A stretch of 64,000 nt of DNA. Source: a phage. The stretch's first letter is position 1, and every line of letters starts with the position of its first letter. Made by a program: the position numbers and the translations under genes. Under the pieces are notes generated by a model. The model had not been told where the DNA came from, did no database searches, and saw only the letters and a program-made list of their open reading frames with translations. The stretch lies in sequence record NC_100371.1; one strand, written 5' to 3'. Shown here in pieces: positions 5,192 to 50,556 of the stretch.

Positions 5192-5268
5192 TGGTCTCCA
5201 CGGAGTGATTCGAACACTCGACCTCCTGATCCCAAATCAGGCGCTCTACCAAGCTGAGCTACGCGGAG
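5192..5268 (-). tRNA. tRNA-Pro (anticodon UGG)
   Basis: Hand-folded cloverleaf: 7-bp acceptor stem, GTTCGAAT T-loop, anticodon loop TTTGGGA, encoded CCA. Confidence 0.75.
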
Positions 5269-5279
5269 TATTTATTATT

Positions 5280-5354
5280 TGGTGGCCCTGGGTGGAATTG
5301 AACCACCGTCTGGCGATTATGAGTCGCTTGCTTGAACCTTCCAGCTACAGGGCC
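5280..5354 (-). tRNA. tRNA-Met (anticodon CAU; could be initiator or Ile-lysidine type)
   Basis: Acceptor GGCCCTG/CAGGGCC, T-arm GGTGGTTCAATTCCACC, anticodon loop CTCATAA, encoded CCA. Confidence 0.7.
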
Positions 5355-5355
5355 A

Positions 5356-5431
5356 TGGTGCTGATGGCAGGACTTGAACCTGCAACCTATTGATTACAAA
5401 TCAATTGCACTGCCAATTGTGCTACATCAGC
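5356..5431 (-). tRNA. tRNA-Thr (anticodon UGU)
   Basis: Perfect 7-bp acceptor stem, D-stem GCAC/GTGC, anticodon loop TTTGTAA, T-arm GCAGGTTCAAGTCCTGC, CCA. Confidence 0.75.
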
Positions 5432-5435
5432 AAAA

Positions 5436-5534
5436 GGTGCTAGGTGATGGAATCGAACCATCTATGTATTCAACGACTACCTCGTCTATTTTCAGGATTA
5501 AAAATCCTCGCCCTTGCCAAAGGGCTTACCTAGC
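5436..5534 (-). tRNA. atypical tRNA-like gene (long variable region; anticodon not assignable by eye)
   Basis: Perfect acceptor pairing GCTAGGT/ACCTAGC and canonical T-arm GATGGTTCGATTCCATC, but about 99 nt long with an unusual anticodon-arm region (AGGAT-TTTTA-ATCCT); no complete encoded CCA. Confidence 0.4.
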
Positions 5535-5632
5535 TCAGCATGTTGACCATGTTGCTAGTCGGCGATGACGACTGTAACATTTGATAATCCGGTTCTGCTT
5601 CCGGCTTTCGCTTAATTACAAGGTCAACAATA

Positions 5633-5723
5633 TGGCAGAGGATAATGGAATCGAACCATCATCGAGTCATCCTCAACGGGACGGTTTTCAAGACCGCTTG
5701 AGCACCATTGCTCCCTACCCTCT
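5633..5723 (-). tRNA. tRNA-Ser (anticodon UGA), type II
   Basis: Acceptor AGAGGGT/ATCCTCT, anticodon loop CTTGAAA, long variable arm, T-arm GATGGTTCGATTCCATT, CCA. Confidence 0.7.
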
Positions 5724-5837
5724 TTTATAAACAATACTGATAATGACACTGATTTTCGAGCAGTTAGTGACTAGTATAAACGACGATAAATATCAATGCC
5801 ATTATCTGTATGATTTATGCATTTAAAAATATAAATT

Positions 5838-5925
5838 TGGTGGTGAGTGATGGAGTCGAACCACCCGAATCGCAATGATAACAGATTTACAGTCTGCCCC
5901 GCTACCCCTACGGAATTAACTCACC
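5838..5925 (-). tRNA. tRNA-Tyr (anticodon GUA), type II
   Basis: Acceptor GGTGAGT/ACTCACC, anticodon loop CTGTAAA, long variable arm, CCA. Confidence 0.7.
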
Positions 5926-6055
5926 TAAATACTAATATTTAAATTCTTTTTAAAATAGCTAGTGTTCTAACCACTAACTATGAGGTATCGGTAAAGTGGT
6001 TACCGCCACTTGCCGAAGATTTACTCTGCTAAAGTAAGCTACATTAAAAAGAACT

Positions 6056-6130
6056 TGGCACCCCGTACTGGACTCGAACCAGTGTCAACGGCTTAGAAGG
6101 CCGCTGCTTTATCCACTAAGCTAACAGGGC
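6056..6130 (-). tRNA. tRNA-Arg (anticodon UCU)
   Basis: Acceptor GCCCTGT/ACGGGGT, anticodon loop CTTCTAA, T-arm ACTGGTTCGAGTCCAGT, CCA. Confidence 0.75.
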
Positions 6131-45291: not shown

Positions 45292-45597
45292 ATGGCTAAA
45301 TCTAAAGTTGAACTGTTCACCTCTCTTCCTTCTGACATTGCAGAGCGTGATCGCCTCCGTAAAACAATTGAAGAGCTGGTGGAACTTCAGCTTCAGATTA
45401 AAGATCTGAAAGACGCTATCAAGGATATTATTCTTGTCGAGAAACAGGATCACCTGTACTCTCCTAAGTTTATCAAGTCTTTGGTGGCTACCGAATTCGA
45501 TATCCGCTACGAAGCTGAAAAACGTCGGGCTAAAATCGAAGAAGAGGTTGAGCACATGTCTGAAGCAGACATTCTGTTCAAACGCTCTGCAGAATAA
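45292..45597 (+). CDS. hypothetical coiled-coil protein
   Basis: 101 aa; AAGGAGA RBS; terminator follows. Confidence 0.5.
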   Translation: MAKSKVELFTSLPSDIAERDRLRKTIEELVELQLQIKDLKDAIKDIILVEKQDHLYSPKFIKSLVATEFDIRYEAEKRRAKIEEEVEHMSEADILFKRSAE

Positions 45598-46338: not shown

Positions 46339-47022
46339 TCCGGTGAACGATTCCATACCTTAAGCAGTTAATCTCATTACAGAGCGTTTAAGGGCGGCTT
46401 ACAAGCAACTCTCTATTTCGAGCGTAGCGAGAACGCACGTCCGTTTTGACCAAAATCACCATACGCTCGGATTTTAACCAAACCCTCGCGGCGCTTCTGT
46501 TGACACATTACCGCTCCTGTGATAGTATCCGCACATCGTTTGAAGAATATGGGATACACAATGAAAACATTGTCAGAGGTTTTAGTGGTGATCCTGATAA
46601 TCATTGCGTCCATAGCGGCTGTTGCCGGAATATGCTTATAGCATCGACACGTTCCAGCCATATGTCGATAAAGTCTTATTTTTTAAACATGTTGCCGGAA
46701 TACTCACGGGTGGAACATGACCAACACACATGCATCTAAAGAGACATCTGAAGGGGTGACAGAGGAAAACTTCAATTCTGAGGATTCTCTATCTCCGTCC
46801 CAGGTGGACCCTGAGGCTGATGACCTGACGTGGGAGGATATCATAGCCATCTGGTTCTCTATTATGCCTGAGCACGAAGAGTTCAGAGGTGGGAGACTAT
46901 GAAGCACCGAGCCCACATAAGTTTATCATGCTAAAGCATGGCCTGAAGGGGCAAACGTGTATAATTCTAGCGTATTGGAACGTATAAACCCTGTTCACAC
47001 TCTCATTTCCAGAGGAGATTTC

Positions 47023-47238
47023 ATGAAAATAGAGATATTTGGTGGGGCTGACAACACTCGTGGCCTGATTTACCTTGAATTTGATGAATCTTATCTGCCA
47101 GAGGTGTTAAATATAGATGCTGTTGCGGAAGCCCTTGATGTAGACCCTAAAGATCTCTACTCTGGTGCTGAGATTGATGGTTGGGAAGAGACTCTGAACA
47201 TTGATTTCAGTGAAGTAGTGGGTGAACCTTTGGACTGA
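47023..47238 (+). CDS. small acidic protein, MKIEIF-type
   Basis: ATG with AGAGGAGA RBS; last plus-strand gene before the ORF-free region. Confidence 0.45.
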   Translation: MKIEIFGGADNTRGLIYLEFDESYLPEVLNIDAVAEALDVDPKDLYSGAEIDGWEETLNIDFSEVVGEPLD

Positions 47239-47377
47239 CACACAAGTCTGCTTTGCAGGTTTAGCTGCCCAGCTAAGGTTCTGGAGGCACCTATAACATC
47301 TTTCAACTAAATTTCCTACCAACACAGTTACTTACCCACCACACATAACTGTTTGCTTGTTTAGTGAGCAGTCATCC

Positions 47378-47405
47378 CTTGACATTCTTGCCTATCTTGA
47401 TAAAA
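47378..47405 (+). promoter_or_regulatory. sigma70-like promoter with no ORF downstream
   Basis: TTGACA-N16-TAAAAT reading into a purine/GC-rich stretch with no credible ORF. Confidence 0.4.
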
Positions 47406-48766
47406 TTAAGTTCTTCTCTTTTCTTTTACCGAGTAATTCGGGTTTTCTGTTCTCTTCGGTTTGAAGGGGTATGGAGATACACCTGAGTGAACAGGGTGAA
47501 CAACCGAACATTTGGCTATGGCATTAGCATGGCGAAGCGGACGGGTGACGAAAGAGGGGCCGGAGGACACCAGTCACTGCCATATAGTATATGGGTGATA
47601 ACCTGAAGAGTCTGAATAAGTGTTTAAGTACCAGTCAGAGGAAAAGGTGAATGGTAGCCGAAGGGGGAGAGGGGGTTTCTTATATCTTTAATTTGTATAT
47701 TATGTATACACTTGTAAACCAATTCAATTAGGATCTGTTTACCACACAAAGTGGATGGAGACAAATATCACCTATTAAACTTGAATTATTTATAGAAAAT
47801 ACCACAACACCTCTTAAGTATTTGATTTTACACACAAATCTTACAAATATCCTACCTCCATATTTAACATACTTGTAACATATTCCATATCCTACCTGCC
47901 TGATCAATTTACTCCCACCACATCCCCACATTTTCCCTGTCTGTACTACCCCTGCCCCGCCGGGAGTCCCGTCATATCTGGCTTTCCAGCAAATATCGCA
48001 CCCACAAATATCATCACCTGAAGAGGGTTTCATCCCATAATACCTGCCTTACCTGAAGAGCGCTTCATACACCACGTAAATTTTTTAATTGACCCCTCCC
48101 CGCCGCCGGAGAGGTTGGCTTTTCCCACACAGGCCTGAAGAGTCAGCCAGAAATATCTGAACAGGTCCAGTTATACCCCGATTTTGTGCCTGTCCTACAG
48201 GAGTGCTGCCCTGTCAGGAGCCGGTAGCGACTGGAGTGCTGCCAGGCGGACGGAATGGGAATACTTCTCATTTTTATAATAATTCTCAAATATCGAGGCA
48301 GTGAGGCAAATTAATAGGCCAGGCCGTTCACACAGTGGCACAACATTTGCAATCTATCTTGTGGGAGTGAATGAGAATACCTATCATTGTGAGAATGGTT
48401 ATCATTACGGGCAATTTAACATAATACCCATTATGCGCACCACTGGCGATACATACAGGGATTGATAACATGGGTTACTGTTTACGCATATAACAATTAT
48501 ATTTCTTACTATTTGTGTGGGATATAGTTAGCAACCAATAGATTAGATATTGACCTGCAGACTTCTGACCGTCCAGACGTCTAAACGCCCACACAGCAAG
48601 GATTATACATACACTCCTGCATGTAAACAGGACCGCAAAAATGCTACCATACCAGTTTGTAAATTTTTCATGCAGCACTTGACAAAGAGGAGAAAAACTT
48701 GTCTGACACACTGGACACAATGTCCCACAATATGACACAATAACGGCTGTTACTATTCCATATCTC

Positions 48767-48824
48767 ACTGTTTACGCATAGACTGTTTACGCCTGAATAG
48801 TTTACGCAAAAACTGTTTACACAG
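48767..48824. repeat. four tandem iteron-like direct repeats (ACTGTTTACGC)
   Basis: Copies at 14-17-bp spacing; further copies near 48477, 49231 and 49267. Confidence 0.55.
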
Positions 48825-48833
48825 AGATGATAA

Positions 48834-49066
48834 GCCATGCCATTCGTTTGCATGAAAACAATTAACAAGCTAACAATCTATGACATAATATAAAAGCAGG
48901 GCAACTATTAGAAGATCTATAGTTGCCTTGCTTGTTATGTCATGATTAACTAAATACAAGGCAACTATGATCTGAATAATAGATTGCAGACAAACTATCA
49001 CGGGGGTGATTGTTACTGCTTTTATATTATGTCGCGACTCCGTCGCGCCATGCCATTCGTTTGCAT
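48834..49066. repeat. dyad-symmetric element bounded by a 20-bp direct repeat
   Basis: GCCATGCCATTCGTTTGCAT at 48834-48853 and 49047-49066; inverted 18-mers GACATAATATAAAAGCAG / CTGCTTTTATATTATGTC; several GGCAACTAT/ATAGTTGCC palindromes. Confidence 0.5.
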
Positions 49067-49681
49067 AGTTGCCTTATTGTTACAGGTAAAACAATTACAT
49101 TATTAATTATTTCTTATCTTTCTCTTAGTCATCTAATGATTCCAGTCAGTATAGTAATGTACAGTAAACATTAGACGACTAAAGATTTCTCTGTGTATAA
49201 TAACTTATCGTGACAATTTCGAACTGTTTACGAAAAATGTTGACACCTGAGCTGATTTATGTTATGCAGTTTACACGAATAATTATTTTATGCAGGTATT
49301 GACTATTCCGTTATTCTGTGGTTGGAATAAATACTTTGCAGACTATAGAATGGCGTGCGTACGTGAATTCTGAGATCTGGCGGCTATAGTTATACTCGAT
49401 TTTTCGCGTAGAACACGCTTTCGATGCTGTGTAAGTGTATGACTTATAAAGATTTTTAGTTGTTGACAAGATATTGGAGATGTGCATCAGGTTAAAATTT
49501 GTGCAATAGCGGCATTACGTGCACTTTTGGGAGAGAAAACGGGTAAAAATGGCCCTGCTACCACACAATGAAAGATTATGCAATAGTTATTTTCCATGTA
49601 TATTTGTACAGTATGTGGGATTGATGGCTAGTCAATTATTCCACTTGCCAGGTAGGGCCGTTTATGGTAGGAGAAGAGCAG

Positions 49682-49709
49682 ACAAAAAGAAAGGGGCCTT
49701 TAAGCCCCT
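49682..49709 (-). terminator. rho-independent terminator ending the minus-strand gene block
   Basis: AGGGGC-loop-GCCCCT hairpin followed by a T-tract on the minus strand. Confidence 0.55.
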
Positions 49710-49728
49710 TGATAATTCAGTTAAGAAA

Positions 49729-50148
49729 TTATAATGATTCGTATATTTCAAAAATCCGATTTGCCAGGTCGTTACGGTAGCGGAATTTTTCATCGCGCTT
49801 GATCATTAAATCCTTATAGCCGTACTCTTTAAGCACTTCATTAACTTTATAGCGGCATACCTGCATATTATCTTGAGCGTCACCAATAAACTTGTTGCTG
49901 TGGTGCATTGCTTTAATTTCTTCTTCCAGGACCAGGGCAACTACCCGGACCGGATCAAGCTGATAGGCGGTAACATCTATGCGGCATTGTAGACGGCTTT
50001 TAACGTCTGCCACCGGATATACTGCAACCTCTTCCCCGTCAACATTGACAATAATTAGTTTACCATCGATTTCGAATCCTTTCGCCGCCGGACCGTGACA
50101 AAAAGCGTTATCAAAGCTATATGCCGGATTATCAGATTTAATGTTCAT
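49729..50148 (-). CDS. hypothetical protein
   Basis: 139 aa; AAGAGGTAAAAAC RBS. Confidence 0.5.
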   Translation of the reverse strand: MNIKSDNPAYSFDNAFCHGPAAKGFEIDGKLIIVNVDGEEVAVYPVADVKSRLQCRIDVTAYQLDPVRVVALVLEEEIKAMHHSNKFIGDAQDNMQVCRYKVNEVLKEYGYKDLMIKRDEKFRYRNDLANRIFEIYESL

Positions 50149-50197
50149 GGTGTTTTTACCTCTTAGTTAATTTTCTTACAACTTCCCTTCAAAAAAG

Positions 50198-50226
50198 AAT
50201 ATAGCAAAACTGCCGATCCCTGTCAA
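50198..50226 (-). promoter_or_regulatory. sigma70-like promoter
   Basis: Minus strand TTGACA-N17-TATATT. Confidence 0.5.
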
Positions 50227-50292
50227 CAAGGGATAGCATAATTTTTATGTGATCAAGGGGCTTTATCGCCCCTGACCATGCAACCTGTTGTA

Positions 50293-50556
50293 TTATTTGT
50301 TGCTCATCCAGTTTTCCCAAGCTGCCTGATAATCTGCCTCACTACGGCGGATCTCTTCTTGTTCTTCAAGCCGGATCTCTTCTTCCAGGTACCCCAAGAT
50401 ATCGGCTTTTTTGGTCTGGCGTAACATCCAATCGTCTTTTTTGCGAGTAAAGATCTTGTACGCTTTCTCGCAAACTTCTTTTTTGCTACCTTTTTGGACT
50501 TCAAGAATTCTGTAAGCCATGTACTGAACTAGTTTGAGCTGGTCAAGACGTTTCAT
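50293..50556 (-). CDS. hypothetical protein
   Basis: ATG at 50556 with AAGAGGAAAAC RBS. Confidence 0.45.
   Translation of the reverse strand: MKRLDQLKLVQYMAYRILEVQKGSKKEVCEKAYKIFTRKKDDWMLRQTKKADILGYLEEEIRLEEQEEIRRSEADYQAAWENWMSNK

Follow-up and report, generated by a model that had tools for sequence, protein, structure and literature searches.

The window analysed here, a 64,000-nucleotide stretch of phage DNA (NC_100371.1), derives from a Vequintavirus, i.e. an rV5-like Escherichia coli myophage, and shares 98% identity with Vequintavirus ECP32. The tandem array under study lies within an ORF-free stretch of about 2.5 kb (approximately 47240-49730) at a convergent junction, the plus-strand genes stopping at 47238 and the minus-strand genes at 49729, where the cumulative GC skew also reaches its maximum, tracking the direction of transcription. 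The rV5 genome paper shows this gap, between genes 163 and 164, as a 'non-coding' box for which it offers no explanation, and its skew analysis could not locate an origin (PMC3606486). Certain GenBank records label the array merely as 'repeat_region', and we found no paper in the Vequintavirus literature on the function of the gap or of its repeats. An Rfam scan of 46500-50500 with E values up to 1 returned zero matches, and Pfam searches of the ten flanking ORFs gave none above threshold, with weak sub-threshold matches only. A 71-codon plus-strand ORF (49519-49734) annotated in a few records was discarded, since it overlaps a terminator and its translation does not look like that of a coding sequence.

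The array occupies positions 48767-48826 of the plus strand and consists of four direct units, ACTGTTTACGCATAG, ACTGTTTACGCCTGA, ATAGTTTACGCAAAA and ACTGTTTACACAGAG, arranged head to tail and each made up of an 11-bp core, A-Y-W-R-T-T-Y-A-C-R-Y (ACTGTTTACGC and variants), followed by a 4-nt spacer. The preliminary description had reported four copies at 14-17-bp spacing; the four copies are real and non-random, the spacing being instead exactly 15 bp, with no mismatches in units 1 and 2, two in unit 3 and one in unit 4. Tandem Repeats Finder recovered the array with period 15, 3.6 copies and a score of 64, and the repeat search gave the identical register. Allowing up to one mismatch, the 11-mer occurs six times in the 64-kb window against 0.78 expected, a number reached by none of 100 shuffles, and five of these six occurrences lie between 48477 and 49233. 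On both strands of the 64 kb, CTGTTTAC is present in eight copies, six of which fall inside 48245-49300 where 0.13 would be expected (binomial P ~5e-10). Beyond the window we relied on ECP32, the 98%-identical phage, as the source of sequence for this count, and its corresponding ~64 kb (bases 1-50000 plus approximately 119300-133317) contain a single CTGTTTAC and zero arrays. The early expectation that the motif would not be scattered at random genome-wide was thus borne out by the search over the window and ECP32, six of the eight CTGTTTAC copies lying within ~1 kb; the motif is confined to this one region of the genome.

The anatomy of the repeat was inferred from 51 distinct units collected from 20 phages with RTTYAC alone as selector. 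Position -3, which is outside the selector, is A in 50 of the 51 units, preceding Y at -2 and W at -1, and R and Y follow the core, while the remaining 4-5 spacer positions carry approximately 0-0.3 bits. This combination of a conserved 11-bp core (AYWRTTYACRY) and a free 4-5-nt spacer is the signature of a protein-binding site and supports a binding-site-like nature of the units, which are probably recognized by a protein because the core is conserved while the spacer is random; recent duplication or neutral decay is disfavoured, since neither predicts a conserved core with a free spacer.

The surroundings of the array were defined by the ends of related genomes. The records of HdK5 (Germany) and ECP2309 (China) carry an identical 459-bp repeat at both ends, which maps with 96% identity to positions 48245-48703 of the window, an interval that starts GGCGGACG and finishes AAAACTTGTC. 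The coordinates of this direct terminal repeat (DTR) in the present phage are therefore transferred from relatives at 96% identity, and they would mark the genome ends or, in concatemers, the junction. At least three of the relatives' records begin at one common base within the gap, and short terminal redundancies of 458 bp have been described in HdK5 and EdH4 by Korf et al. 2019 (PMC6563267). In our 20-genome alignment the DTR appears as a block with conservation of at least 0.9, which falls sharply to ~0.4-0.6 on either flank. Inferences of headful packaging with permutation made in some papers on related phages (PMC13211470, PMC3475682) count against a DTR-packaging reading. The array starts 64 bp beyond the right boundary of the DTR and spans 64-123 bp from it; as judged from the mapped ends, it is well supported that in packaged DNA the array lies ~520-580 bp away from the left physical end and that in concatemers it is located at the junction. 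The feature would hereby move from a 'possible origin' to the edge of the terminal repeat, and the 'non-coding box' of rV5-like phages becomes a chromosome-end or concatemer-junction region made of at least six repeat families.

Several of these families lie immediately next to the DTR. A second array, at 48704-48745 of the plus strand, follows the last base of the DTR without a gap and consists of GACAC-type repeats of ~10 bp with an RRCAY core and a variable spacer; the right boundary reads CTTGTC/TGACAC, the slash marking the end of the DTR, and Tandem Repeats Finder detected period 10 at 48714-48742 within this zone, with large copy-number differences between phages. The repeats of the GACAC array are spaced by about one turn of the helix, and the first of them is formed by the boundary sequence; we infer from this that direct recognition by the terminase is more plausible for the GACAC array than for the 15-bp array. 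On the other side, the left flank of the DTR (48197-48243, plus strand) is hypervariable and contains AC(A/T)GGAGTGCTGCC twice at 33-bp spacing, with one or two copies or an insertion in the relatives; this motif differs from those of the right flank, and no TGTTTAC array was found left of the DTR. Both flanks are indel hot spots with unrelated repeats. Together with the DTR boundaries, these hypervariable flanks matter for genome orientation, assembly and the engineering of therapeutic coliphages. The 5 bp just outside the boundaries, TGCCA before the left one and TGACA after the right one, form a weak inverted repeat. Further to the left of the DTR, conserved C-rich non-coding DNA harbours four copies of CCTGAAGAG, at 47601, 48016, 48051 and 48134.

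Solitary copies of the 15-bp array motif complete this arrangement. They had been reported near 48477, 49231 and 49267; all three exist, with true starts at 48477, 49223 and 49266, and two reverse-strand copies had been overlooked. An exact copy (ACTGTTTACGC) lies inside the DTR at 48477-48487 on the plus strand, its GTTTAC core being invariant in 20/20 genomes, including V18, while two motif positions vary. Also within the DTR, at 48621-48631 on the minus strand, is a reverse copy (CCTGTTTACAT on that strand) in which TGTAAACA is invariant in 20/20. The other reverse copy, at 49161-49171 on the minus strand (ATGTTTACTGT on that strand), lies directly against the TAGACG that forms the -35-like element of a promoter predicted on the plus strand and is kept in 18/20 genomes, and the plus-strand copy at 49223-49233 (ACTGTTTACGA, one mismatch) is placed directly upstream of an invariant TTGACA, with GTTTACGAAAAATGTTGACA invariant in 20/20 between varying flanks. 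The weak plus-strand copy at 49266-49276 (GCAGTTTACAC) retains the core alone and is conserved in ~15/20, and a possible further copy was seen at 47734-47744. The four copies at 48477, 48621-48631, 49161-49171 and 49223 are thus conserved in 18-20 of the 20 genomes amid otherwise variable DNA, some of them inside the DTR and others ~350-450 bp further in from the array. The idea that the repeats are protein binding sites, already put forward in the preliminary description, is supported by the core/spacer pattern, by these invariant or near-invariant solitary copies and by the local confinement of the motif.

In contrast to the solitary sites, the array is strikingly variable. Among the 20 aligned genomes of our comparative set, the number of copies goes from 0 (V18) through 1-2 partly degenerate ones (four phages) up to 7-8 (rV5, BP9 and one IMG/VR contig), the period being 15-16 bp in every lineage. 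In V18 about 135 bp (the equivalent of 48746-48879), including the whole array and the first copy of a conserved 20-mer, are replaced by ~47 bp of unrelated sequence with an A12 run and a small hairpin, and the GACAC repeats and all solitary motif copies are retained; the array is therefore shown by V18, a propagated phage, to be dispensable. A scan of IMG/VR with CTGTTTAC-N8-TGTTTAC, a pattern that proved too loose, retrieved scattered single matches among the matches listed, and the conserved 20-mer retrieved 2 loci.

Comparisons beyond the genus separate the array from the cut sites. For Mydovirus KPP-1, a 514-bp DTR and T7-type packaging have been deduced from twofold coverage and PhageTerm (PMC9862379). 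This DTR (boundaries at 2517 and 3030 of the KPP-1 stretch analysed) lies within the equivalent convergent ORF-free gap, and its edges are homologous to those of Vequintavirus, with A/GRCGGAC on the left and TTGACAA-purine-rich-TTGTS/TRRCA on the right. Given that these homologous boundaries were determined independently in each genus, they suggest that the determinants of the terminase cut lie at or inside the DTR edges. Despite this homology, no arrays were found in the terminal region of KPP-1. The terminal non-coding DNA of Phapecoctavirus Schickermooser showed neither nucleotide similarity nor clean arrays, and a homologue of ORF164 is again the last gene before this DNA and a 329-bp DTR. 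In the window the ORF164 homologue (49729-50148, minus strand) encodes 139 amino acids with 89% identity in Phapecoctavirus, which belongs to a different subfamily and in which the gene is transcribed towards the genome end; phage groups may have exchanged it as a gene linked to the terminus.

The nearest analogue known for this array comes from T7, in which Dunn and Studier reportedly described in 1983 the SRL and SRR arrays of CCTAAAG heptamers on either side of the 160-bp terminal repeat; to our knowledge no function has been assigned to them since then. On the T7 sequence, the terminal repeat (1-160) is followed by ~12 CCTAAAG units at 175-341, mostly with a 13-bp period, a similar array stands left of the right terminal repeat, ACCTAAAG is found at 16 and 59 inside the terminal repeat, and two promoters, A0 (an annotated E. 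coli promoter, inside SRL) and phiOL, are situated within the array or just past it. The likeness to the present phage is considerable: a short core (7 bp in T7, 11 bp here) with a free spacer and a period below 20 bp which does not correspond to whole helical turns (13 bp in T7, 15-16 bp here), an array separated by no more than tens of bp from a short exact DTR, additional copies of the motif within that DTR, and promoters, here promoter-like elements, in the array or close behind it. T7-type packaging has in addition been described in the subfamily of the present phage (Mydovirus KPP-1, PMC9862379). On the other hand, motif and lineage are unrelated (a 135-kb myovirus here, a 40-kb podovirus in T7), T7 carries its motif array on both flanks, whereas here it is on a single DTR flank with two distinct arrays side by side, and the copy number of the present array varies from 0 to 8 within the genus. 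By analogy, we regard the array as a counterpart of SRL/SRR in architecture and not as a homologue, because its motif is arrayed on one DTR flank only, and the analogy does not give its mechanism. On the same comparative grounds the array is best classed as a further case of the DTR-flanking short-repeat arrays long known from T7; it is real, non-random and biologically meaningful, yet ordinary in kind. The natural variation of Vequintavirus, with 0-8 copies, one natural deletion and an array-free sister genus, could make the function of such arrays testable.

Repeated sites for the terminase small subunit, such as R1-R3 of lambda cosB, the pacL/pacR boxes of SPP1 or the hexamers of P1 pac, offer a second term of comparison; they are essential and fixed in number. 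Like them, the array presents repeated short motifs within ~50-150 bp of the cut, on the DNA that becomes the packaged end, but it is dispensable (V18), variable in number and missing in the sister genus with homologous cut sites. Because V18 is without it, and because conservation across genera extends to the cut-site sequences but not to the arrays, the array cannot be the core packaging signal, and any role in packaging must be accessory. Furthermore, with a period of 15-16 bp neighbouring sites face opposite sides of the helix, an awkward geometry for DNA that is to wrap round a ring of terminase small subunits.

Our tentative preference goes to an accessory role in the maturation of the DTR junction, in packaging or in marking, which would be exerted through a sequence-specific and probably genus-specific protein on the array and the solitary sites. 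Such a DNA-binding protein, probably encoded by the phage itself, would load in multiple copies on a 'landing pad' at the chromosome end and act in cis on the events taking place there, lending auxiliary help to junction maturation or packaging, for instance by positioning or stimulating the terminase nick 64 bp away; alternatively, within the same end role, it could mark and protect the DNA end. In this view the conserved solitary sites would be the core targets, and the array would serve as an enhancer that is dispensable and acts in a dosage-like manner. We consider it rather improbable that the array and the conserved solitary sites form the cis-acting half of a dedicated chromosome-end system of Vequintavirus. 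In such a system a genus-specific protein would cover an adjustable number of sites beside the terminal repeat, so as to protect or tether the DNA end or to time its processing, for instance in the face of RecBCD or while DNA is ejected and concatemers are resolved, and the copy number would be an evolvable dial. If this were true, the natural variants already sequenced, which number more than 100 and have 0-8 copies, would constitute a genetic series for assigning a function to T7-type DTR-flanking repeats. About 1.7 kb from the gap, at 45292-45597 of the plus strand, a gene encodes a 101-amino acid protein with 42-57% identity in Klebsiella, Salmonella, Cronobacter and Erwinia phages (Vequintavirinae genera), which is called 'transcriptional regulator' in some records and gave a weak sub-threshold match to a GapR-like DNA-binding domain (E = 0.04); on this basis it is a candidate DNA-binding protein, and it also occurs in genera without the array. 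Comparison with PVP-SE1 was unhelpful, as the conserved 101-amino acid gene is there without an adjacent non-coding gap.

The solitary sites beside promoter-like elements fit a transcription regulator about equally well. Nearly as likely as the favoured accessory role, and doubtful when taken by itself, is hence that a motif-binding regulator controls sigma-70-type promoters at the left chromosome end; the array would, with the same doubt, serve as a roadblock or high-avidity sink downstream of the promoter-like TGACA...CACAAT in the GACAC zone. The site at 49161-49171 abuts the -35-like element of a predicted promoter, TAGACG-18-TATAAT (10/12), whose -10 varies in the relatives and yet keeps A2 and T6; the 49223 site precedes the invariant TTGACA, the 49266 site falls at the expected -10 or transcription start, and promoter-like matches at 48703-48741 are directed into the array. 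Ribbon-helix-helix regulators such as MetJ and omega do use variable numbers of tandem operator units, and in T7 the annotated E. coli promoter A0 sits inside SRL. These promoters are, however, consensus matches only, 16 having been found against 10.1 +/- 3.2 expected, and those on the plus strand would fire towards the 3' ends of minus-strand genes with no convincing plus-strand gene downstream; moreover, Pfam recognized no regulator gene among the ten ORFs flanking the gap and no array unit has a usable -10 at promoter spacing. Among known regulatory arrangements, array units acting themselves as promoters with TTTACG/A as -35 were rejected for the lack of a usable -10 at 16-18 bp in any of them, and a T4 MotA-box-like middle-promoter arrangement for its inconsistent spacing between sites; spacing or orientation does not fit the PhoP box (TGTTTA-N5-TGTTTA, 11-bp period), CpxR (GTAAA-N5-GTAAA) or LexA (CTGT-N8-ACAG, inverted). 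It is unlikely that the array is simply functionless, i.e. a satellite produced by slippage or unequal recombination from a functional solitary site in the recombination-prone DNA by the DTR. The extreme variation in copy number, the loss in V18, the degenerate units in the phages with 1-2 copies and the indel hot spots with unrelated repeats on both DTR flanks would all be expected of a satellite, and unit 1 and the DTR copy at 48477 have ACTGTTTACGCATA in common and match over 14 bp; but the core is kept and the spacer randomized across paralogous and orthologous units (A in 50/51), whereas neutral decay would erode both, and the period of 15-16 bp is held in all lineages. An element working at the RNA level is very improbable; here, a repeat ncRNA made from the GACAC-zone promoters would titrate a host or defence factor, like the pseudo-ToxI repeats of phiTE. 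ToxI units are structured, whereas the 15-nt units of the array are without self-complementarity, there is no Rfam match in the scanned region, and conserved solitary sites in reverse orientation suit recognition of DNA better than that of RNA. The RNA reading draws on the promoter-like matches upstream of the array, on its highly variable copy number and on the precedent of the rV5-like phage phiTE, whose expandable non-coding pseudo-ToxI repeat has a copy number selected by host defence (PMC3475682), although ToxI units are 36 nt long (PMC3475682).

The preliminary description had interpreted the array as iteron-like binding sites at an origin. In this reading an initiator would melt nearby AT-rich DNA, and the origin could be a secondary or late one tied to the terminus. 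This interpretation gained little from our data and we hold it to be improbable, although an origin might still lie somewhere in the terminal gap. It is in keeping with direct repeats that have a conserved core, with AT-rich tracts (27-31% GC) at 49050-49350, ~230 bp from the array, and with the situation in T7, whose secondary origins phiOL and phiOR adjoin SRL and SRR, in positions that we saw on the T7 sequence. Classical iterons, on the other hand, are three or more direct repeats of 17-22 bp placed about two helical turns apart, whereas the present core is of 11 bp and the period of 15-16 bp (~1.5 turns), both shorter. Against an origin also speak the copy number of 0-8, with none in V18 and decaying units in low-copy phages, the absence of the array from KPP-1 despite a homologous terminal region, and its place abutting the right DTR boundary, i.e. 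a chromosome end or concatemer junction. The ten flanking ORFs gave no Rep, O or initiator-type Pfam match, and no DnaA-box cluster was found in the gap, which has one box with 1 mismatch. The replisome genes are of T7 type (PolA plus gp4-like helicase-primase) and the nearest lies ~20 kb or more away, and T7-type replisomes start from transcripts and not from iteron-bound initiators. The convergent junction, finally, coincides with a maximum of the cumulative GC skew. With the origin iterons of lambda ori, of iteron plasmids and of PLE (the RepA iterons; PMC7145576), the array shares direct repeats for protein recognition in a large non-coding region, but it differs from them in the shorter core and period, in copy numbers down to zero, in lying between convergent rather than divergent genes and in being without a nearby cognate initiator gene and without a cluster of DnaA boxes.

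A further argument for an origin comes from ICP1, which is listed among the homologues of the rV5 DNA polymerase (PMC3606486). Late coverage in this phage peaks at the terminus, which lies in an ORF-free gap; the authors read the peak as a rolling-circle origin that works late, and the terminus as a pac site (PMC7145576). The peak, however, is also seen in virion DNA (PMC7145576) and so may be an end artefact. ICP1 resembles the present phage in its related polymerase, in having its terminus in a 1.3-kb ORF-free gap and in its PhageTerm peaks at 431 (plus) and 891 (minus) (PMC7145576), 460 bp apart compared with the 459-bp DTR here, and comparable tandem arrays were not found in its terminal gap. 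Because the distance between the peaks essentially equals the DTR length of vequintaviruses, the ends of ICP1 may be formed by a short DTR and not by headful packaging from a pac site.

Our analysis of the window also brought out other conserved elements. At 47350-47670 there is an ultra-conserved non-coding block of ~320 bp, with ~1.00 identity in 19 relatives against ~0.9 for the neighbouring genes; it is present with 95-99% identity in all 118 phage records, from Vequintavirus only, and starts at a near-consensus sigma-70 promoter (47379-47406; TTGACA-16-TAAAAT with TG, 11/12). The block had no Rfam match and its RNA fold is not significant (z = -1.34). It could be a sequence-constrained ncRNA or DNA element, and as an origin or packaging signal it may be a stronger candidate than the array. 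A conserved composite element at 48834-49085 combines two copies of the 20-mer GCCATGCCATTCGTTTGCAT (48834 and 49047), the first of which is missing in V18 and FV3, a perfect inverted repeat of 18 nt (48882-48899 / 49016-49033) and AAGGCAACTAT, which occurs four times with its orientation alternating (~48898, 48919, 48957 and 49065); the element resembles a protein-binding module of the operator or origin type. At the other end of the window, in a cluster of six tRNA genes (5192-6130), ARAGORN called a 99-nt tRNA-like gene on the minus strand (5436-5534) with a 4-base anticodon (atcc) and no identity assigned.
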